From: an uncultured delta proteobacterium
GTDB taxonomy: Bacteria > Desulfobacterota > Binatia > UBA9968
Reading direction: 5' to 3'
Assembly (NCBI GenBank): GCA_963745835.1
Contig: CAVUZH010000016.1
Location: 256,001 to 320,000, forward strand
Length of the DNA stretch: 64,000 bases
A program made the translations under genes and the position numbers. Below the pieces are notes generated by a model. It ran no database searches and was not told the origin of the DNA. It was given only the letters and a program-made list of their open reading frames with translations. Shown piece by piece: positions 878 to 51,690 of this stretch (positions within the stretch are counted from its first letter, which is position 1; each line of letters starts with the position of its first letter).

Positions 878-3800
878 ATGAATGATCAGAGACGAAACCC
901 CAGAGTAGTCGGCATCGGCGCATCAGCGGGCGCAATGGATCCGCTCAAAGAATTCTTTACGGGAATCGGTACCGAAACCGGACTTGCCTTCGTGGTCGTA
1001 CAGCACCTCGATCCTAACCACATCAGCTACATGTCGGAAGTTTTGGCGCGCCAAACCGGCATGAAGGTTATCGAAGCAACCGATCGAGCGCCGCTCCAGG
1101 CCAATTTCGTTTATACCATCCCGCCCAATAAATATATTTCCTTAGACGATGGCGTGCTGCGGCTGAGCGAGCCGATCAAACGCGACGGCTTGAGACTGCC
1201 GATCGATTTTTTCTTTCGCTCTCTGGCTCATGACCGTGGCGTCGAGGCTATTGCCGTCCTGCTTTCAGGCGGCGGCTCGGATGGAACTCTCGGGATCAGA
1301 GAGATACGCGGCGCCGGCGGTCTGGTGATCGTACAGAATCCGGAGACCGCCGAGTTCGACTCGATGATCGAGAGCGCCATCGCCACCGGTCTTGTGGATT
1401 TTGTTCTGCCGGTTCAGGAAATTCCCGCCAAGCTGCTTCAGTATGTGCGCCAGGTTTCCGAAAACGATGGCGCCACACCGCAGACGATCAGCGCTGGCAT
1501 CGACGACATTCTCGAGCTCCTCGTCAATGAAACCAAGAGCGATTTCCGCTCTTACAAAAAGACTACCGTCCGGCGCCGCATCGAACGCCGCATGGGTGTC
1601 AATCGTATCCAGGACATATCCGGTTATCACACTTTTCTCAGGGATAATCCTGCGGAGCTGGCCAAGCTTGCCAAAGACATGCTGATCGGCGTGACCAGTT
1701 TCTTCCGCGACCTGGAGGCGTTTGCCGAGTTGCGCGAGAAAGTTATCAAGCCGCTGGTCCTGGAAAGTAACCGCTCAAGTCCTCTGCGCGCATGGATTCC
1801 CGGATGCGCCACCGGCGAGGAGGCTTATTCGATCGCGATCTTGGTGATGGAGGAAATGGCCGCCGCGAGGAAAAATCTGAGCCTGCAGATGTTCGCGTCC
1901 GACATCGACAGCGATGCCCTTAAATCTGCGCGCGAAGGGATTTATCCGCAAAGCATCGCCGCCGATGTAAACGAGGAGCGCCTGGCGCGGTTTTTTATCA
2001 AAAAGGACAGCATCTACCAGATCGAGCCGAGAATCCGCGAATGCGTCACCTTTGCCGAACACAACGCGATCCAAGATCCGCCGTTCCTGCGAATGGACTT
2101 GATCAGCTGTCGCAACTTGATGATCTACATAGAGCCGGAGGTCCAACAAAAAATTCTCAACCTCTTCGGCTTTGCTTTGAAACCGGACCGCTATTTGTTT
2201 TTAGGAAAAGCCGATACCAGCATCGAGCAAAGCGATCTTTTCGAGCCGGTCTCGCGAAGCTGGCGGATCTTTCAGCGGCGCCCGTCGGTGGCTGTTCCCT
2301 TCCGTAGCTTTCCTACTAGAACAGCGACCCATGCCATCAAATCGGAAGAGCAGCATCCGATCAAACTCGCCGACTTGAACCAGCAGGTGCTCCTGGATCA
2401 TTTCAATGCAAGCATGGTCCTGGTTAGGCAAACCGGCGAGATCCTCCATTTTTACGGCGCGACGCATAAGTATCTGTCGCACCCAGCCGGCGATGCCACG
2501 CTTAATCTTTTTAGCATGCTCGAAAAGCACCATGCCGTTGCGCTGCGCCTCGCCGTCGAGCGCGCCGAGCGCGAAGACGTAACCGTCACTTCGGAGCTTC
2601 GCGAGATTGCCCGCAACGATCCTGCCGAGATAGTTAAGATTACCGTCAAGCCGGTCAAAGATCCGATCTCGCGCAAGCGCCTGATCGCGGTCATCTTCCA
2701 GCCGGCCGAGCCGCAGCCTACGCCGGAGCCCGTCGCCCGGCAGGCAACCAAACCTCAGGATGGCGATATCGCCACCCAGCTGGAGGCCGAGAACAATCAG
2801 GTTGAAACAGGATCTTCAAACGGCCATCGAAACTTTTCAGGTGACGCATGAAGAATTCACCGCCGCCAACGAGGAAGTGCTGGCGATCAACGAGGAGTTA
2901 CAGTCGACAAATGAAGAGCTGGAAACATCCAAGGAAGAATTACAGTCGGTCAATGAGGAATTGATCACCGTCAATAACCAGCTCAACGATAAAGTCGAAG
3001 ATCTTAGCAAGGCCAATGATGATCTGGCGAATTTTTTAAACAGCTCGGATGTCGCGACGTTGTTTTTGGACCGGGGGTTTTGCATCCGCCGTTTCACGGT
3101 TTCGGCAACACGGCTGATGAACTTACTGAGCCTGGATGTCGGCCGTCCGATCAAGGATATCGCAAATCAGCTCGTCAACGTGAATCTGACCAGCGTGGCC
3201 GACGCCGTGCTCAAGAATTTGGCGACTTACGAACAGGAGGTCGCGGCCGCAAACGGGTCGTGGTACATGATGCGCTGCGTTCCGTATCGCACCCTGAACG
3301 ACGTCATCGACGGCGTGGTCTTCACGTTCACCGACGTGACCCGCCTGAAGCAATCGGAAGAAGCGATGCGTCGTGCCCGTGATTACACCGACAACATCAT
3401 TCAGACGGTTCCCGTTTCTCTGCTTGTGCTTGACGCCAAGCTCACAGTTGTCTGCGCCAATCAGGCTTTTTACCGGACCTTTGAAGTCGCGCGCGCAGAT
3501 ACCGAACATCGGCTCATCTATGAGCTGGGCAGCGGCCAATGGAATATTCCCAAACTGCGGGAGGTTTTAGACGATATCGCGAAGCGCGACTCGCACATCG
3601 ATAACTTCGAGGTGGAGCACGACTTTCCCGGCATCGGCCGCAAGATCATGTCTCTGAACGGCCGGAAACTCTCCAGCAATCACGGTGACGATAACAACTC
3701 GATACTGCTGGCCATCGAGGACATCACCGGACGCAGGCAAGCCGAAGAAGAGCGACTCTGGCTCGAAGGCGAGCTTCGCCAGGCGCAGAAGATGGAAAGC

Positions 3801-4509
3801 CTGGGCACACTGGCGGCGGGGATCGCGCACGACTTCAACAACATTTTAAATATCGTGCAGGGATACGCTTTCGTATTGCGCGATTCCAAGATCGCCGATG
3901 AACTGGTCAAAGAAAGTGTTTCGGCGATTCTTGACAGCACGACACGAGGCGCGACCATAGTCCAGCAGCTACTGACGCTAGCGCGCAAGACAGAGCCTAA
4001 GTTCGAGCTAGTAAACATTGATGCCCTGGTCGAGGAAGCTGGCGCAGTTGTTCGGCAAGTCCTCTCCGCAAACGATAGAAATCAAGCTCGAATTAAGCCG
4101 GCAGAGCCCGCCGGTCTTGGCCGATCGCAATCAGATTTTTCAAGCTCTGTTGAATCTCTGCCTGAACGCGCGCGACGCGATGGCGAGCGGCGGCACTCTG
4201 ACGTTGAAGACCTCGCTGGTCAATCGTAATGCCGTGCGTAATGCCGTGCCTAGCTCCGAGGAGGTCACGGCCGAACAGTATGTGCGCATCGACGTTAACG
4301 ATACCGGCGAGGGAATAGATGAAAAGGTCCTGGGTCGGATTTTTGAGCCTTTCTTCACCACCAAGGGCGCTGGCCGGGGAACCGGTTTGGGTCTAGCGGT
4401 CGTGTATGGGATTCTCAAGCACCACAAAGGTTCCATCCAGGTGACGAGTAAGCCCGGCGCGGGAACGTCTTTTCAAATTTATTTACCGGTTATGAGACCT
4501 AGTGATTGA
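878..4509 (+). CDS. CheB-CheR-coiled coil-PAS-histidine kinase fusion, about 1209 aa when two +1 frameshifts (about 2800 and 4034) are corrected
   Basis: CheB motifs (GASAG, QHLDP, SGGGSDG) and CheR motifs (IGVTSFFRD, GCATGEEAYS, DLISCRN) lie in ORF 854..2851. The NEELQSTNEELETSKEELQS coil, PAS and H-box GIAHDFNN lie in 2760..4229. N/G boxes ([22 protein letters not shown]) lie in 4018..4509. The domains continue across each frame change. Likely start ATG 878. Confidence 0.85.
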
Positions 4510-10426: not shown

Positions 10427-11956
10427 ATGGCTACTGAGAAGCTGGCGGATATCGGCCTGATCGGCTTGGCAGTTATGGGCGAAAACCTGGCCCTAAACAT
10501 TGCGGATCACGGCTTTAGAGTCGCTGTCTACAATCGCACGATCCAGGTGATGAAAGGCTTCATTGCTGCCAACCCTGACACTCCGGGCGGCCTGATTGGA
10601 TGCGCGACGTTGCCTGAGCTGCTGGCGGCGATCAAGAAGCCGCGCAAGATCATCATTCTCGTTAAAGCGGGCCCAGCCGTCGATGCCGTGACGCGACAGC
10701 TCATGGATGACGGGCTGGAAAAGGACGACCTCGTAATCGATTGCGGCAACAGCCTCTGGACCGACACCATCCGGCGCGAGAAAGACTATGCCGGTCATTG
10801 TCGCTTCTTCGGCTCCGGAGTTTCCGGCGGGGAAATCGGCGCGCGCTTCGGCCCATCCTTGATGCCCGGCGGCGATGCGCAAGCATGGCAGCATCTCGAG
10901 CCGATCTGGAAAGCCATCGCCGCCAAAGTCGATCCCGAAACCGGCAAAGCGATTGAAACCGCCAGACCAGGCCAACCCGTAGTAGGTGGAATCCCTTGCA
11001 CCGCGTACATCGGCGAGAACGGCGCCGGCCATTATGTCAAAATGATCCACAACGGCATCGAGTACATCGACATGCAGTTGATCTCCGAGGCTTACTTTCT
11101 GATGCGCAATCTGCTTGACGCCGCGCCCGATCAGCTCGCGCAAACTTTCGCGCGTTGGAACGAAGGGGATCTCGATTCTTATCTTATCGAAATCACCGCA
11201 GACATTCTAAAGCAGCGCGATCCGCAGAAGCCGGATTCATTTCTCGTCGACCATATTCTCGATACCGCCCAGCAGAAAGGAACCGGTAAATGGACCAGCG
11301 TCAACGCCCTCGACATGGGAATTCCGGCCAATGCGATCGCCGAGGCGGTCTTCGCGCGCAATCTGAGCGCGCTTAAAGATGAGCGAGTGGAAGCATCCAA
11401 ACAATTAGTGGGCCCGGAATACAGCTATAGCGGCAACCGTGAGGAACTGATCGATTCGGTTCGCGATGCGCTCTACTGTTCGAAAATCTGCGCTTATGCG
11501 CAAGGCTTTCAGCTCATGCGCGCGGCCGAGAGCGAATACAAGTGGAAGTTCGATTTCGCCTCCATCGCCGCTATCTGGCGTGGCGGCTGCATCATTCGCG
11601 CGCGTTTCCTGCAAAAGATCACCGATGCGTATAAGCGCGAGCCGCGCCTGGTGAATTTGCTGCTCGACCCGTACTTCAAGGAGCAGATTCAGAAGACTCA
11701 GTCGCGCTGGCGTTCCGTGGTGGCCATAGCCGCGCAAGCGGGCATTGCCGTTCCCGCGTTCATGTCGGCGCTGGCGTATTACGATGGCTACCGATCGGCA
11801 CAGCTGCCGGCCAATTTACTCCAGGCGCAGCGAGATTATTTCGGCGCGCACACCTACGAACGCACCGATCAGCCGCGCGGCAGATTATTCCATTTGGACT
11901 GGCCGGCACCGGATCGGCCGGAACTTCCAATCGCGAATTCCGGCAAATCCGACTGA
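10427..11956 (+). CDS. gnd: 6-phosphogluconate dehydrogenase, decarboxylating
   Basis: [78 protein letters not shown]. Confidence 0.97.
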
Positions 11957-12188
11957 AGCATCAGTTACGAGATTCCTCGAAGCGATTGCGGTCTTAGGCG
12001 AACACGCCCCGAGTAGCTTTTTCTCAGCAGATTTGACAGAACTTGACTGTTACATACCTGTTGCTGTTACATTAGGAGGCATTTTGGCACCCCCAGGAGG
12101 TTAATGTACGGTAATCGCCATGCTTATTACCTGGATTTCAGTTACATTAAGAACGGCAGTTTGACAGCCAGGAGGTTCACGAACGACG

Positions 12189-12587
12189 ATGGCCATCCCC
12201 GGAGAAAAAGCAATTCAAATGGTGCGCAACGCGCATACGCAGGCAACGCAGTTGGACATCGCGGTTACGGCGGTAGTTGTTGATCAGAGTGGCCGAATGA
12301 TCGCGCTGGGCAGAATGGACCGGGCTCGTCCGATTACCGTAGAAATCGCCCTGAACAAGGCCTACACCGCCGCCAGTTTTCAGCAACCCACCAAGGAGCT
12401 CGCCGGAGTCGCCGGCCAAACATGGTTTCAGAGCCTGGTCGTGTCAAGCAACGGACGCATCATGCCGGGGGCGGGCGCGCTGCCAATTGTTGAAGGCGGC
12501 GCGGTTGTCGGCGCGGTGGCGGTGGCCGGCGGCACCGAAGATCAGGACCAACGCTGCGCTGAAGTGGCGTTGGCGTCGTATGCTTAA
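12189..12587 (+). CDS. GlcG/HbpS (haem-degrading/PduO C-terminal-like) family protein
   Basis: AVVVDQSG..RMD, IALNKAYTAA, GALPI...VGAVAVAGG...QDQRCA. GGAGG at 12171-12175. Confidence 0.88.
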   Translation: MAIPGEKAIQMVRNAHTQATQLDIAVTAVVVDQSGRMIALGRMDRARPITVEIALNKAYTAASFQQPTKELAGVAGQTWFQSLVVSSNGRIMPGAGALPIVEGGAVVGAVAVAGGTEDQDQRCAEVALASYA

Positions 12588-12607
12588 TCAAGGATGAGTT
12601 ATGAGAG

Positions 12608-12653
12608 CTGAAACCTGAAAAGGATTACTCCCGCTTTCCGTTTTCCGCTTTCC
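12608..12653. repeat. 7-bp tandem units in roughly inverted arrangement (CTGAAAN x2; CCGYTTT x3)
   Basis: ctgaaac ctgaaaa ... ccgcttt ccgtttt ccgcttt in the intergenic gap. Confidence 0.45.
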
Positions 12654-12672
12654 TAATTAAGGAGAAACTCGC

Positions 12673-13995
12673 ATGGCAGTGACTTTAGGGAAAACAACCG
12701 AATCAAACCAAAGCGCACACACTAAAGCAGACACCCCCCCGCCACCCTACCTCGGCCGCTCGGTCCGCATCGTTGGACCGGTGGTAAATGTCGACATGAA
12801 TCAGTCGCCGCATCCGAAAAATCAGCGCGGAGAATTGGGCAAGCCTCTTTTCAACTGGTATCACAACACCGTCTCCAAGGATCCTCTGACCCGGGTTTCG
12901 GCGCCAAACCATTTTGCCGACCGTCGCCATTTTCTCAGCACCATCATCAATCAGGCCACCAAGGGCAAGGTCAATCCGAGAAAAATAGAGGTGCCGGATG
13001 CGGCGGCGATGTCGCGCCACATCAAAGCGGTCGCGCATTACATGGGCGCCGACGTTGTCGCAGTTGCCCAAGCGCATCCATCCTTCCTGTACGCCGGCAG
13101 CCGCTATGTTCAAGACGGCACCGCAGAGGACGCCTATCAGGAAACATCGCCGACGGACCTTGTGAAGAAATTCCCCTACATCATCGTCGCCACCACTGCC
13201 TGGGATTACAACAAGCTTCAGGCGCATCGTCACCTGATCGGCGATGCCGCGTATCACGTCTCGCAAATCAAAGGCAACATGATTCTGAAGGCCCTGGAGG
13301 GCTACATCAAAGAACTGGGCTATACGGCGTTGCGCGGCGTCTGTACGCCGCAGGCCGCCGGCGTCGCTTCGGGAGTCGGCGAACTCGGGAGAAACGGGCT
13401 GGTCATCAACAAGACTTACGGGGCGCGCATCCACATGCCCGATCCGATCATGACCGACCTTCCTCTGGTGGCGGATCAGCCGGTCGATAATGCCGTCGAA
13501 GATTTTTGCAAGATTTGCCGGAAATGCGCTAACACTTGTCCCACCAACAGCATTCCGTTCGGCGATAAGGTCGTTCATAACGGTATCGAGAAATACAAGA
13601 TTAACTGGCTCACCTGCTACAAGTTGCGGCCGTATGTGCACGATTACTGGGGCAGCTGTCTGACCTGCGCCACGGTCTGCCCGTTTACCAAACCCAATGT
13701 CTGGTGGCACAGCCTCGCTACATGGTCTTTGCGCACCTGCCCGATCCCGGCGCGGCCCGCGCTAGTCCACGCGTTGAAATGGATCGATGACCGCTTCTGG
13801 GGAGTTGCGCGTAATAATCGCGTGCGCTGGCTCGGCTACGATTCCGGGATCAAGCCGGGAGATCAGGCGTGCACCGTCGCCGGCTGCAATGCATCGCATG
13901 AGGGAAAGGGGCCGGCCAAAGAAGTGGCCGGCAACGTCGGTTACTACGCGCCACTAAAAGAGAACACGAACCGGTTCGTCAAGCGGGATGCCTAG
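12673..13995 (+). CDS. Reductive dehalogenase (RdhA)-like cobalamin / 2x[4Fe-4S] protein, cytoplasmic type
   Basis: HIKAVAHYMGADVV, YIKELGY, GVGELGRNGLVI, TDLPLVADQPVD, FCKICRKCANTCP and C-x13-CLTCATVCPFTK. No twin-arginine signal. AAGGAG RBS. Confidence 0.85.
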   Translation: MAVTLGKTTESNQSAHTKADTPPPPYLGRSVRIVGPVVNVDMNQSPHPKNQRGELGKPLFNWYHNTVSKDPLTRVSAPNHFADRRHFLSTIINQATKGKVNPRKIEVPDAAAMSRHIKAVAHYMGADVVAVAQAHPSFLYAGSRYVQDGTAEDAYQETSPTDLVKKFPYIIVATTAWDYNKLQAHRHLIGDAAYHVSQIKGNMILKALEGYIKELGYTALRGVCTPQAAGVASGVGELGRNGLVINKTYGARIHMPDPIMTDLPLVADQPVDNAVEDFCKICRKCANTCPTNSIPFGDKVVHNGIEKYKINWLTCYKLRPYVHDYWGSCLTCATVCPFTKPNVWWHSLATWSLRTCPIPARPALVHALKWIDDRFWGVARNNRVRWLGYDSGIKPGDQACTVAGCNASHEGKGPAKEVAGNVGYYAPLKENTNRFVKRDA

Positions 13996-14621
13996 TGACC
14001 TTGCGATTGGGTCCGTTTAAACTGCCCGGGCTGAGACGAGATCCTCATAAGAACGATCCGTACTGGGATTTCTTTCTAAACACGCCGCCGGCGGATCTCG
14101 ACAACACAGTGACCGAGCTGATCCGCAATGCTCCGCCCGGCAATGTTTTTCCGACCAAGGCTGATATCCACACACCGGAGATTACCTCGAGCCATGTCAA
14201 AGGAATGGCTCACTACTTCGGCGCGGATCTGGTGGGTATCGTAAAATTACCGGCGCACAACCCATCGCCCTCGCCTCTCCCGCCAGCCGCGGATGGTAAG
14301 ATCGAAGAAGAATATCCCTTCGGAGTCATCTGCGTGGTTCGCGCTGAGTACGATCCACGCACCGCACCGGGCATTGGCGGGCAAGTGCCCGTGCAGAACG
14401 GGCTGTTCATTACCTTCGTACTGAGCGCGTGGATCAGGGAGCTCGGCTTTCGCGCCAAGGTCGCGCCCGAAACTAATGGCGAGAAGCTTGCTGCCGTGGC
14501 CGGTTTGGGCGAGATCAACGGGGACGGCCGATTAGTGACTCCTCAGTACGGCGCCGATGTTCATGTGATAAATATCATTCTGACAGATCTGCCACTCGCC
14601 GCAGACGGCACACAAATATGA
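13995..14621 (+). CDS. RdhA-like cobalamin-binding-fold protein lacking the Fe-S domain
   Basis: HVKGMAHYFGADLVGI, WIRELGF, AGLGEINGDGRLVTPQYG, ILTDLPLAADG, then stop. The GTG start overlaps the upstream TAG (TAGTG). Confidence 0.75.
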   Translation: MTLRLGPFKLPGLRRDPHKNDPYWDFFLNTPPADLDNTVTELIRNAPPGNVFPTKADIHTPEITSSHVKGMAHYFGADLVGIVKLPAHNPSPSPLPPAADGKIEEEYPFGVICVVRAEYDPRTAPGIGGQVPVQNGLFITFVLSAWIRELGFRAKVAPETNGEKLAAVAGLGEINGDGRLVTPQYGADVHVINIILTDLPLAADGTQI

Positions 14622-14626
14622 AAGCT

Positions 14627-14705
14627 GTTCCAGTCGTTCCAATAGTTCCACTCGTTTATGGGTTAGACAACCTGGAACAGTTGGAACGGTTGGAACAATT
14701 GGAAC
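14627..14705. repeat. Inverted array of 9-bp tandem units
   Basis: GTTCCA at 14627/14636/14645 and its complement TGGAAC at 14673/14682/14691/14700. Confidence 0.85.
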
Positions 14706-14730
14706 GTATCTTCATGCGCAGCGAGAACTC

Positions 14731-15393
14731 ATGCCCTACGTGATCACCAGCCTGTGCACCAATGACGGAGCGTGCGTTGACGTCTGTCCGGTCGCCTGCA
14801 TTCATACGACACCGGGAGCGCCGCAATTCTACATCGACCCTGAAGTATGTATCGATTGCGAGCAGTGCGAAATCGTCTGCCCCGTGGACGCAATCTTCAA
14901 AGACATCGATATTCCGGCCGAACATCAAACTGCCATTGAGGTCAACGCCGCCTTCTTTCGCAAAAACAAGGCAGCCGCCGGCCCGGTTTCCTTCGAGACC
15001 GCTTGGCAGATGATCCGCGCCGCGCATGATTACGCGCAGATTATGGGAATGGCGGTGACAGCCACCGTGGTCGATGAGGCGGGCGGGCCGATTGCCGTGG
15101 GGCGAATGGATAGTGCCGAACCGATGACGGCAGAGCTGGCGTTTAATAAGGCTTATACCGCTGCCGCCTTTCACGTCGCCACCGCCGAACTGGCGCCACA
15201 AGCGCGGCAACCGCGATTTCACAGCCTGACGATGTCCCATCGCGGTCGCATCATGCCGGTGGGCGGAGCTATTCCGATCATTAACGGCGTGACCATCGTT
15301 GGCGCCGTCGGTGTGGCGGGTGGGAGCCGCCCGGAACAAGATATTCTCTGTTGCCGCGCCGCGCTCGCGGTCATCGAAGGCCACGGTCACTAA
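14731..15393 (+). CDS. Dicluster ferredoxin fused to a GlcG/HbpS domain
   Basis: N-terminal MPYVITSLCTNDGACVDVCP...YIDPEVCIDCEQCEIVCPVDAIF (FdxA-like). C-terminal VVDEAGG..RMD, NKAYTAA, VGAVGVAGG. Confidence 0.88.
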   Translation: MPYVITSLCTNDGACVDVCPVACIHTTPGAPQFYIDPEVCIDCEQCEIVCPVDAIFKDIDIPAEHQTAIEVNAAFFRKNKAAAGPVSFETAWQMIRAAHDYAQIMGMAVTATVVDEAGGPIAVGRMDSAEPMTAELAFNKAYTAAAFHVATAELAPQARQPRFHSLTMSHRGRIMPVGGAIPIINGVTIVGAVGVAGGSRPEQDILCCRAALAVIEGHGH

Positions 15394-15411
15394 ACACTAA
15401 CGAGCATCGCC

Positions 15412-15720
15412 ATGTACCTCGTTCAACTACTCTTACCGCTGTACGATAATTTGAACGCCCGATTTCCGCCTGAGGCCTTCGATTGTGTGCGGCAAGAGCT
15501 AACCGAGCATTTCGGTGGGGTCACGGCTTTTCTGCGTTCACCAGCTCAAGGGTTCTGGCGGATAGCCGAGAACGCCATCAATCGCGATGAGGTGGTTATC
15601 TTTGAAGTGATGACCGATGAACTAAACCGGCGGTGGTGGGATGGATACCGAGCAGATCTGGAACAGCGCTTCAGGCAAATCGAACTGGTGATCCGGGCAA
15701 GCTCGATCGAGAGGCTCTAA
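15412..15720 (+). CDS. Conserved-looking hypothetical protein, 102 aa
   Basis: LLLPLYDN, FGGVTAF.RSPAQGFW, LEQRFRQ pattern, recalled from a widespread uncharacterised small family. Starts 18 nt after the previous gene. Confidence 0.7.
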   Translation: MYLVQLLLPLYDNLNARFPPEAFDCVRQELTEHFGGVTAFLRSPAQGFWRIAENAINRDEVVIFEVMTDELNRRWWDGYRADLEQRFRQIELVIRASSIERL

Positions 15721-15863: not shown

Positions 15864-16058
15864 CATGATCTCCGTCACGCTGCCGAACTGTCACCGCAAC
15901 CCACCTCGAACTCGGGTAAGTTAGACTCCAGCTGCAACGTACCGTGCCGCTATCCGCTTGATTTAAATCGATAGCAGCCGATCAAAAAACGACCGGTAGC
16001 GCCGCAACGCCCAGACAACCTCTTGGTTCGGCATCGAAGACCGTTTAGTATCGTCTGC

Positions 16059-17522
16059 ATGAAAGAAATTCGTTTTGTCGATACGACACTGCGCGACGGC
16101 CAGCAAAGCCTTTGGGCATATGGCATGCGCACAGGAATGATTGTTCCGATCGCCGAGCAGATCGATAATGCCGGCTTCGAGGCGATCGAGCTCGGCGGTC
16201 CCGTGGAGCTGCCGAAGTGCGTCCGGGAGCTGCGCGAAGATCCCTGGGAGCGTTACCGGCTGGTTTTAGCTCGCATCAAGAAAACCCCGCTTCGAGTCAT
16301 TCACGGCACTCGCAGCGGCTTCGCCATTTACCCGCATGCCATTCATCAACTCTACGACCGCTGCATGGCGGATATCGGGATTAAGCAGGTGCGCATCTCC
16401 GATTCATGGAATGACCCGGCCGATTGGCAGTGGCGGGTGAAACAAGCGCGGGCCGCGGGGCTCGAACCGATCATCAATTTGATCTATACGATTTCGCCGC
16501 GGCACACGGATGAATACTATGCGCAAAAAACCCGCGAAGCGCTGAAACTGAACGTGTTCAGGGTGTGTTTGAAAGATCCCGGCGGAATCCTTACACCGGA
16601 GCGCACTCGCACTCTGGCGCGGGCGGTTCTCCAAAGCGCGAACGGCACCATCGCGGAGTTACACACGCACTGTACCACGGGACTGGGCTCTCTCTGTTGT
16701 CTGGAAGCGATCCAGGCGGGTATGACATCGATTAACACCGCAATCCCTCCGCTGGCCGACGGTTCTTCGAACCCGTCAATTTTCAACGTTGCCAAAAACG
16801 CTAAGGCGATGGGCTTTGCGCCGGTGATCGACGAAGACCCTATTCGCCCAGTGGCGGCTCATTTCACGGCAATCGCCAAACGAGAGAAATTGACTATCGG
16901 TAAGCCGCCGGAATATGACTACGCTCAATACATCCACCAAATTCCCGGCGGCATGATTTCAAATCTGCGTCACCAGCTAGGTCGCGTCGGGATGGAAGAC
17001 AAACTCGAGCGAACCCTCGATGAAGCGGCTCAGGTGCGGGCAGAATTTGGCTATCCGATCATGGTCACGCCCTTGTCCCAGTTCGTCGGCAGCCAAGCCG
17101 CCATCAATGTAATCGTTGGCGAGCGTTACAAGGAAGTGACGGATCAGACCATCGAGTACGCCTTGGGAGTCTGGGGAAAAGAAGGCGGCGCAATGATGGA
17201 CCCCGCCGTAAAGGACAAAATTCTCAGCCGCCGACGCGCCATGGAAATCGCCAGACGTGAACCGCCGCAGATGCCGCTACAAGAGTTGCGGCGAAAATTC
17301 GGCGGATCAAGCGTATCCGATGAGGAAATTTTGTTGCGCTTTTTCACCAGCAAGGAAGATGTCGATTCTATGCGCGCGGCCGGGCCTGCCCGGCTTTACG
17401 CCAATGGGGGAAATCCGCTATTGCACCTGCTCGAAGAGCTTACGAGAACAACCAATCGCTCCAGCATATCGGTTCAACGCGGCGACTTGTCGGTGCGTTT
17501 ACATAGGAACTCGGCATTATAG
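16059..17522 (+). CDS. Pyruvate/oxaloacetate carboxyltransferase subunit (HMGL-like + OadA/PycB domain), no biotinyl domain
   Basis: VDTTLRDGQQSLW, CLKDPGG, LHTHCTTG, HQIPGGMISNL, GYPIMVTPLSQFVG. Confidence 0.88.
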   Translation: MKEIRFVDTTLRDGQQSLWAYGMRTGMIVPIAEQIDNAGFEAIELGGPVELPKCVRELREDPWERYRLVLARIKKTPLRVIHGTRSGFAIYPHAIHQLYDRCMADIGIKQVRISDSWNDPADWQWRVKQARAAGLEPIINLIYTISPRHTDEYYAQKTREALKLNVFRVCLKDPGGILTPERTRTLARAVLQSANGTIAELHTHCTTGLGSLCCLEAIQAGMTSINTAIPPLADGSSNPSIFNVAKNAKAMGFAPVIDEDPIRPVAAHFTAIAKREKLTIGKPPEYDYAQYIHQIPGGMISNLRHQLGRVGMEDKLERTLDEAAQVRAEFGYPIMVTPLSQFVGSQAAINVIVGERYKEVTDQTIEYALGVWGKEGGAMMDPAVKDKILSRRRAMEIARREPPQMPLQELRRKFGGSSVSDEEILLRFFTSKEDVDSMRAAGPARLYANGGNPLLHLLEELTRTTNRSSISVQRGDLSVRLHRNSAL

Positions 17523-51614: not shown

Positions 51615-51690
51615 TGGCTCCCCGGGAGGGACTCGAACCCCCGACCAATTGGTTAACAGCCAACTGCTCTACCGACTGAGCTACCGGGGA
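51615..51690 (-). tRNA. tRNA-Asn (GTT)
   Basis: Minus strand TCCCCGGTAGCTCAGTCGGTAGAGCAGTTGGCT-GTT-AACCAATTGGTCGGGGGTTCGAGTCCCTCCCGGGGAGCCA; 76 nt with encoded CCA. Confidence 0.97.

Follow-up and report, generated by a model that had tools for sequence, protein, structure and literature searches.

A 64,000-nt stretch of contig CAVUZH010000016.1, from an uncultured delta proteobacterium of the Binatia (the window), carries a cassette of four genes for a relative of the reductive dehalogenases (RdhA). In order, the genes encode a stand-alone GlcG/HbpS/DUF336 protein (GlcG1), an RdhA-like catalytic subunit, a second protein with the cobalamin-core fold of RdhA and without the Fe-S domain (RdhN), and a ferredoxin fused to a GlcG domain (Fd-GlcG). 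The cassette is a real and widespread variant of the catabolic RdhA-type enzyme. Its products probably form, although we are some way from certain, a soluble, cytoplasmic, multi-protein cobalamin/Fe-S reductase on the catabolic branch of the RdhAs, with Fd-GlcG as its dedicated ferredoxin partner.

A conserved four-gene cassette

The region contains five open reading frames (ORFs), all on the forward strand: GlcG1 (132 amino acids [aa], 12189..12587, PF03928 at E 4.3e-28); the RdhA-like subunit (440 aa, 12673..13995, with a predicted cobalamin core and two [4Fe-4S] motifs; TIGR02486 and Fer4_7); RdhN (208 aa, 13995..14621, from the RDH profile and a structural model); Fd-GlcG (220 aa, 14731..15393, Fer4 and PF03928); and a 102-aa hypothetical protein (15412..15720). 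The spacing is 85 nt between GlcG1 and RdhA, a 1-nt overlap between RdhA and RdhN, 109 nt between RdhN and Fd-GlcG, and 18 nt between Fd-GlcG and the last ORF. A preliminary description of this DNA had reported five co-oriented, closely spaced genes, and they lie exactly where it placed them. It had also noted that no FAD/NAD(P)H reductase is encoded in the span, and this was borne out: the ORFs and family scans of the cassette span gave neither a flavin reductase gene nor a gene for an RdhB-like small membrane protein. It was mistaken in counting the 102-aa protein as a member of the system. This ORF has no Pfam or NCBIfam family match, its clusters in the protein atlas are named "hypothetical protein," and it is present in just 4 of 62 genome loci, all of them near-identical relatives, and in 4 of the 65 metagenome loci with room for it. 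The conserved cassette is GlcG1, RdhA, RdhN, and Fd-GlcG, and the 102-aa gene is a lineage-specific neighbor outside it.

We scanned genomes, one per species, with the RdhA-like protein as the seed and found 97 relatives, from which 78 distinct loci were kept. RdhN begins within 200 nt of the end of RdhA in 68 of the 70 loci with room for it (it is at 223 nt in locus L066 and is missing from L050), and Fd-GlcG comes after RdhN in 62 of 64 loci (all but L031 and L050). A GlcG1-type match lies at most 700 nt upstream of RdhA in 55 of 72 loci; the match in L050 is an Fd-GlcG, which leaves 54 true GlcG1 genes, and in L051, GlcG1 is 2.2 kb upstream. Both flanks are available for 59 loci: the complete set of four is present in 44, only GlcG1 is missing in 13, and the remaining 2 are arranged otherwise. 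We also ran a reciprocal test, in which an alignment of Fd-GlcG was compared to metagenome contigs. Among the best 80 of 470 matches (74 to 96% identical), 47 of 51 loci have RdhN immediately upstream of Fd-GlcG, with RdhA present in 32 of 36 and GlcG1 in 26 of 27. Thus, the neighborhood search that the preliminary description had proposed found a gene order that is conserved far beyond chance.

The 13 three-gene loci are mostly from Dehalococcoidia and otherwise from Chloroflexota. When five genomes with three-gene loci were searched with GlcG1 as the query, the best match was only 38 to 44% identical in G002 to G005 (G003 to G005 are Dehalococcoidia); in G003 and G004, it was the GlcG domain of Fd-GlcG itself. 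G001 has a second cassette, with a 79% identical GlcG1. GlcG1 is dispensable in the Dehalococcoidia form, for which these searches gave no GlcG1 ortholog in any of the three genomes (G003 to G005). In two loci from Dehalococcoidia (L065:6001-8670 and L066:6001-8639), a tandem pair of RdhA genes precedes one RdhN and one Fd-GlcG.

The metagenome-assembled genomes (MAGs) with relatives are labeled as Binatia, "delta proteobacteria," Acidiferrales, Rokubacteria/Methylomirabilota, Chloroflexota, Dehalococcoidia, Eremiobacterota, Eisenbacteria, Udaeobacter, and Syntrophobacter. RdhA is 73 to 87% identical between MAGs that are labeled as different phyla, which suggests horizontal spread, strong constraint, or both. 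Within the window's own phylum (as classified by GTDB), the distribution looks patchy: of 401 genomes searched, the window's genome alone gave an Fd-GlcG, and there was one weak, GlcG-only match elsewhere. Soil metagenomes contain hundreds of clusters at 90% identity, some of which have hundreds of members.

The cassette is also present in soil RNA libraries. Contigs from four soil metatranscriptome runs, from four studies, cover all four genes with 90 to 99% likeness: a 2,012-nt contig spans GlcG1, RdhA, and RdhN; another spans RdhA and RdhN; and a third has Fd-GlcG and the 102-aa gene. We gave no interpretation to RNA bins without cover, such as 14536-14679 in X6. Upstream of GlcG1, the window has a consensus match to a promoter-like element, TTGACT-N17-TGTTACATT (12043..12073, forward strand). 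More generally, TTGACN-N14-17-TGNTANNNT was found in 33 of 55 regions upstream of GlcG1, versus 0 of 55 control stretches inside rdhA. The element mostly ends 38 to 41 nt before the start codon of GlcG1; that of the window starts 146 nt ahead of this codon. The window's leader (12043-12188) is about 100 nt longer than those of most relatives and repeats GTTACAT and AGGAGG, as if the region of the promoter and the ribosome-binding site were partly duplicated. The leader of L002 is similar in this respect, and that of L001 is not.

The catalytic subunit and its separate vestigial domain

The best NCBIfam match of the RdhA-like protein is RDH (TIGR02486), at 141.4 bits, or 137.7 bits in the genome search, where the cut-off is 160.35; the Pfam family for dehalogenases (PF13486) did not match it at E 0.01. 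Its closest solved relatives by sequence are the catabolic enzyme NpRdhA (4ras, E 5.4e-27) and PceA (3.8e-24), with QueG far behind (1.6e-9), and the alignment covers the C-terminal half of NpRdhA (residues 332-616). Comparison of the family to other RdhAs with hhalign gave a probability of 100%. An AlphaFold2 model has a mean predicted local distance difference test score (pLDDT) of 61, with residues 100-140 and 160-280 confident and residues 40-87 and 377-440 poor. Foldseek matched this model to an RDH complex (8q4h, 6.5e-14), to PceA (~1e-11), to NpRdhA (~5e-11, root mean square deviation [rmsd] ~5), and, distantly, to QueG (~1e-5) and MMACHC (0.018). Eight cysteines (C279/282/285/289 and C315/329/332/336) are invariant across 35 members of the family. 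The Foldseek matches, the cysteines, and the hhalign result all describe a nitroreductase-like cobalamin core followed by a ferredoxin-like domain with two [4Fe-4S] clusters.

The two poorly modeled segments are highly conserved, and low confidence in a monomer is what would be expected if they fold on partners. A complex prediction for RdhA and RdhN, with GlcG1 as a partner, scored 0.29, compared to a mark of 0.32, in a run without controls; this result bears on binding in neither direction. Most members of the family have a C-terminal motif with two cysteines and a histidine, IKPGxxACTVAGCxAxH (RdhA residues ~390-410; 13840-13900 in the window). It is missing from eight sequences from Dehalococcoidia that also lack GlcG1; L063 and L071 retain it without a GlcG1 ortholog, so the link to GlcG1 is imperfect.

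We considered whether the protein might be an epoxyqueuosine reductase of the QueG type or a respiratory reductive dehalogenase. A source database gives the name QueG to one of the 120 homolog clusters listed (P0108), and the protein has a weak match to the QueG model (TIGR00276, 51 bits, with a cut-off of 200). However, the window's genome has a true QueG on a different contig (C24), which scores 398 bits against the same cut-off, and the tree described below has QueG as a distant outgroup. As for a respiratory role, the N terminus lacks the twin-arginine motif, followed by a hydrophobic stretch, that would be expected for twin-arginine translocation (TAT), and no RdhB gene accompanies it; the lack of both is typical of catabolic RdhAs and not of respiratory ones. 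To the limit of sequence analysis, both identities are refuted, and we give them almost no chance of being correct. The cytoplasmic, non-respiratory character that was first proposed stands.

We scanned the full set of 1.84 billion representative proteins and obtained 2,067 matches at E ≤ 0.001. Just two of the full-length representatives were high scoring (P0121, 514 bits, and P0124, 367 bits); P0128 (413 aa, 38% identity) scored 258 bits, and all other full-length RdhAs scored 190 bits or less. We built a tree of 99 rows (IQ-TREE quick, LG+G4), rooted on the QueG of the window's genome: besides this QueG, it includes 87 of the 150 listed representatives, ten members of the family, and another, short RdhA-like protein from the same genome. 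The other 63 representatives have fewer than 340 aa and were left out as fragments. The family is a single clade (100 by the Shimodaira-Hasegawa-like approximate likelihood ratio test, with a stem length of 0.63), joined by P0128 as its sister (99), and the sister clade of this pair (88) contains P0263, which represents the NpRdhA cluster (654 bits to 4ras). The tree thus puts the family on the catabolic side of the RdhAs, as a clade of its own that is next to the NpRdhA group and far from QueG. Both the proposed separation from QueG and the suggested phylogenetic check therefore came out in favor of an RdhA.

RdhN accounts for a domain that the catalytic subunit lacks. It has no Pfam match, and it matches the RDH profile at positions 125-196 (E 2e-13). 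Its AlphaFold2 model has a pLDDT of 82 and, by VIA-align, is most similar to the N-terminal domain of NpRdhA (Z 15.9 over 164 aligned residues, rmsd 3.0; residues 38-221 of 4ras_B), followed by the core of PceA (Z ~13), QueG (11.6), CblD/MMADHC (7.4), and CblC (6.9). RdhN ends with a TDLPL motif, which is the point where the Fe-S domain begins in RdhA. In NpRdhA, the N-terminal domain is vestigial: it has no cobalamin and mimics the dimer interface of PceA (PMC10463259). RdhN is the structural equivalent of this domain, which makes the cassette's enzyme a catabolic-type RdhA with its vestigial domain in trans, encoded by a separate downstream gene. In 32 of 59 loci, the start of RdhN and the RdhA stop codon share 1 nt; in 20 more, the gap is 0 to 5 nt. 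We found no fused forms at E 1e-20 among proteins of 771 to 2,200 aa, which is weak evidence. The preliminary description called the enzyme split, and there are indeed two genes with the RdhA fold; the second can now be specified as the vestigial N-terminal core domain of the NpRdhA type. RdhN also has an invariant N-terminal motif, DPYWxxFxxxxxxDxxN (D21, W24, F27, D34, and N37; window 13995-14105), and these residues (21-37) are outside the core fold and are modeled with moderate confidence.

The active site differs from those of known RdhAs. In NpRdhA, Tyr426 is the proton donor, along with Lys488, and Arg552 binds the hydroxyl group of the substrate (PMC7565698). We located these columns by comparing the family profile to PDB chains, with a MAFFT alignment to 10 other RdhAs, and with hhalign against 30 other RdhAs. 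All three methods agree that the nearly invariant tyrosine column (Y246 in PceA, Y426 in NpRdhA) is Q198 in the window's protein and Q, S, A, L, or T across the family. The Lys/Arg partner column (K488 in NpRdhA, R305 in PceA) is H254, or H, N, or Q across the family. Of the three NpRdhA residues, only R552 has its column kept, as the invariant R319. The family has its own invariant residues, A184-H185-R186-H187, G190, D191, and Y194 (AHRH-x2-GD-x2-Y; 35 members), and Y194 is four residues, or one helical turn, before the canonical tyrosine. The sister representative P0128 has neither the canonical tyrosine nor the HRH motif in the MAFFT alignment.

These changes leave room for chemistry other than dehalogenation, and the enzyme may carry out such chemistry. 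Specifically, the same complex might be a B12-dependent reductase of an epoxide, hydroxyl, or N-O group that relates to the RdhAs as QueG does and acts on one fixed metabolite or soil compound. Besides the replaced residues at Q198 and H254 and the AHRH, D191, and Y194 positions that are invariant only in this family, this would fit with the RDH score below the cut-off, the lack of a PF13486 match, and the long stem of the clade; and the high identity of RdhA across phyla suggests a single, tightly constrained substrate. On the other hand, that identity could also be explained by recent transfer, R319 is invariant, and the nearest relatives, both among solved structures and in the tree, are dehalogenases. 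Also, Y194 could take the role of the canonical tyrosine: a pairwise phmmer alignment sets Tyr426 of NpRdhA beside Y194, so a functional replacement is possible. Overall, we consider a non-dehalogenase to be a serious possibility but not the likely one.

Proposed GlcG partners and mechanism

Both GlcG domains are clear members of PF03928 across the full domain (98.3 bits for GlcG1 and 104.4 bits for Fd-GlcG, with a cut-off of 25), and they are 55% identical to each other. GlcG1 is strongly conserved, with a mean column identity of 86% across 19 orthologs from several phyla. Its best solved relative is OrfY of K. pneumoniae (2a2l, E 4.9e-23), followed by NahX, PduO-C, EfgA, and HbpS. In Fd-GlcG, the ferredoxin is N-terminal (aa 1-85, nt 14731-14985, forward strand), and the GlcG domain is aa 87-213 (nt 14989-15369, forward strand; PF03928 at E 5.7e-30). 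Fer4 matches residues 1-60 (E 4e-13). The NCBIfam models for FdxA score below their cut-offs (FdxA_Actino, 74.7 bits, cut-off 125). The cysteines are C9-x5-C15-x3-C19-P ... C40-xx-C43-xx-C46-xxx-C50-P; the pattern, C-x5(7)-C-x3-CP ... CxxCxxCxxxCP, fits the 7Fe FdxA type, which would have a [3Fe-4S] and a [4Fe-4S] cluster. At E ≤ 1e-10, the fusion has 930 relatives in the databases, and the source names of the best 120 of these 930 include "ferredoxin," "ferredoxin--NADP+ reductase," "heme-binding protein," and a composite of GlcG (DUF336) and PreA.

We propose that the corrinoid and the two [4Fe-4S] clusters reside in the 440-aa RdhA subunit, which would perform the chemistry, and that RdhN, a separate but translationally coupled protein, would pack on it as a pseudo-dimer partner. 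Electrons would come from the operon's own 7Fe-type ferredoxin, which would receive them from the cell's general reductases. GlcG1 and the GlcG domain of Fd-GlcG most likely form a small GlcG oligomer, which would dock the ferredoxin on the enzyme, keep the corrinoid in the active reduced state, or both. NpRdhA requires ferredoxin, and its cognate donor system resisted reconstitution with the neighboring ferredoxins (PMC10463259); this difficulty makes a built-in and possibly docked donor plausible. The substrate is perhaps a halogenated or otherwise activated aromatic compound from soil organic matter, and not necessarily an organohalide. Because the Tyr-Lys/Arg dyad is replaced by a His/Arg/His-Asp-Tyr set, the substrate is probably one specific, perhaps anionic, compound.

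The GlcG proteins might instead be co-transcribed binders, sensors, or protectants against a reactive product, in which case only the ferredoxin would touch RdhA, and only transiently. EfgA, a DUF336 protein, is a sensor of formaldehyde (PMC8153426), and NahX, from an operon for aromatic degradation, is the second-best solved relative of GlcG1. The loss of GlcG1 from the Dehalococcoidia form, and the few loci with Fd-GlcG and without RdhA, also fit with this explanation. It does not account well for a covalent fusion of ferredoxin to GlcG that is kept in nearly all loci. Also, the 86% identity of GlcG1 is more than would usually be seen in a protein that only binds a ligand and suggests that many surfaces of GlcG1 are constrained, and DUF336 recurs beside B12 enzymes. 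We therefore think it unlikely that the GlcG proteins stand apart from the enzyme.

DUF336 proteins are linked to B12 enzymes in other systems as well. PduO-C binds heme through His18 and is needed for efficient B12-dependent use of 1,2-propanediol; it is related to OrfY and to HbpS, which binds both heme and aquo-cobalamin (PMC4923194). In our alignment, His18 of PduO-C corresponds to Ile9 of GlcG1, and the invariant H16 of GlcG1 corresponds to a valine in PduO-C. Thus, the heme-binding mode of PduO-C is not conserved in GlcG1, and we rejected heme ligation of the PduO-C type as a role for it.

Several points weigh against a dedicated multi-protein reductase. First, corrinoid binding and the binding of the cassette's proteins to each other are inferred. 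His18 of PduO-C has no counterpart in GlcG1, and DUF336 proteins can also be small-molecule sensors, as EfgA is (PMC8153426). Second, the association of the genes has exceptions. The core can do without GlcG1, which is absent from the Dehalococcoidia form; in L050, the genes are in another order and RdhN is missing; L031 lacks Fd-GlcG; and in 4 of the 51 loci from the Fd-GlcG search (L154, L155, L164, and L167), Fd-GlcG has no adjacent RdhN or RdhA. L155, which is the sole exception with annotated ORFs, has ABC permeases before Fd-GlcG and a protein with three RidA domains after it. Third, the RDH score is below its NCBIfam cut-off, and with the altered tyrosine and Lys/Arg columns, dehalogenase chemistry is not assured. 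Fourth, errors in MAG binning could inflate the taxonomic spread, RNA libraries can hold DNA, and a contig from such a library is no proof of a single transcript.

A bolder combination of these ideas is that the cassette encodes not a dehalogenase but a new kind of B12 system, in which a remodeled RdhA-fold site (His-Arg-His, Asp, and Tyr replacing the Tyr-Lys/Arg dyad) would carry out another type of reduction, on a compound that is common in soil or in cells, and the DUF336/GlcG proteins would be true subunits that dock the ferredoxin and maintain or reactivate the corrinoid. We regard this as doubtful. If it were true, DUF336 would gain its first defined molecular role beside B12 enzymes, and PduO-C and OrfY would be explained as well.

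Genomic surroundings and relation to known systems

The window's genome has 7.28 Mb in 25 contigs and is 97% complete, with 9% contamination. It encodes CobS, which is consistent with the use of cobamides; CobN was not found in this genome, but since CobS is present, that says little about the supply of B12. The short RdhA-like protein that was included in the tree (301 aa; contig C18, L083:1402-2307, forward strand, adjoining prfB) is cytoplasmic, has two Fe-S motifs, and has no GlcG or RdhN neighbor. It scores 118.5 bits against TIGR02486 and has a long branch in another part of the RdhA tree. In the window as a whole, the sole Rfam match at the gathering score is a tRNA gene (51618-51690, reverse strand), and hence there is no match to a cobalamin riboswitch.

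Upstream of the cassette is gnd, for the NADPH-forming 6-phosphogluconate dehydrogenase (10427-11956; also in L001 to L003, L040, and L044), and downstream is a carboxyltransferase subunit of the OadA/PycB type (16023-17522; also in L001, L002, L040, and L044, and the contig of L003 stops short of this position). This synteny is confined to the closest relatives, and other lineages differ. Genes that recur in the flanks, in 4 to 19 of the 78 loci each, include NMT1-type binding proteins, Amidohydro_2, UbiD, SDR, triple-RidA, bicupin, and GST; this survey used crude ORF calls and also picked up antisense ORFs. We considered the flanking genes as a clue to the substrate and set them aside, as none is universal among the 78 loci. 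Because the flanks vary, the cassette is considered self-contained as a module. In 7 of the 78 genome loci (L018, L020, L032, L035, L036, L048, and L067), a protein of about 400 aa with three RidA/L-PSP domains directly follows Fd-GlcG, often with NMT1-type binding proteins next to it. In L155, the triple-RidA gene (2980-4152) is next to Fd-GlcG even without RdhA and RdhN.

The closest characterized system is NpRdhA (4RAS, 6ZXU), which is also cytoplasmic, has no TAT signal, depends on ferredoxin, and has a cobalamin core, two [4Fe-4S] clusters, and a vestigial second core domain; the cassette's RdhA belongs to a neighboring clade and retains a counterpart of Arg552. They differ in that the cassette's vestigial domain is a separate protein, encoded after the catalytic part and not before it; in that the Tyr426 and Lys488 columns are not kept; and in that identity is just ~26%. 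Also, the NpRdhA operon includes a ferredoxin reductase and two ferredoxins (PMC10463259), while the cassette has GlcG1 and the ferredoxin-GlcG fusion instead. A 2025 survey described "simplified cytosolic" RdhA-like proteins of about 395 aa, without the vestigial domain, from Desulfobacterota and Chloroflexota (PMC12219181). These resemble the cassette's RdhA in being short, in having no TAT signal, transmembrane helices, or fused vestigial domain, and in the taxa they come from; compared by their description, they differ in that the cassette has the vestigial domain as the next gene, along with GlcG partners.

More distant systems share parts of this arrangement. PduO-C and OrfY, from diol and glycerol dehydratase clusters, and HbpS also have the GlcG/DUF336 fold, encoded beside a cobalamin enzyme, but in the cassette, the neighboring enzyme is a reductase of the RdhA type, and one of the two GlcG copies has a ferredoxin as its fusion partner, in place of an adenosyltransferase. 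In humans, CblC (MMACHC) and CblD (MMADHC) are a B12-binding, nitroreductase-like protein and its homologous, non-catalytic partner of the same fold; this likeness is distant and at the level of the fold only, as they have no Fe-S domain and function in the processing and trafficking of B12. QueG shares the superfamily fold, B12, and two [4Fe-4S] clusters, and it uses the fold for non-halide chemistry; besides the low score of the cassette's RdhA against the QueG model, the tRNA-binding HEAT domain was not seen in this protein, where none was searched for. We found no paper that mentions "reductive dehalogenase" with "GlcG" or "HbpS," and no description of a trans-encoded vestigial RdhA domain or of a ferredoxin-GlcG partner, in searches that did not extend to subscription-only papers or supplements; none of the matches listed had "reductive dehalogenase" and "DUF336" together. 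The expectation that this architecture is absent from characterized systems thus agrees with the searchable literature.

Published schemes have four domain organizations for RdhAs (PMC10463259). The cassette would be a further one: a catalytic subunit, a vestigial domain encoded in trans, and a dedicated ferredoxin-GlcG protein. The physiological electron donor of the catabolic RdhAs is an outstanding question, given that the cognate system of NpRdhA resisted reconstitution (PMC10463259). Here, the donor is encoded in the cassette and is fused to a likely docking module, so the question of the donor becomes directly testable. The cassette also adds a third independent case in which DUF336 is paired with a cobalamin enzyme. 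Finally, because the cassette is abundant in soil metagenomes and is present in soil RNA libraries, its substrate may matter for the cycling of halogens or carbon in soil.

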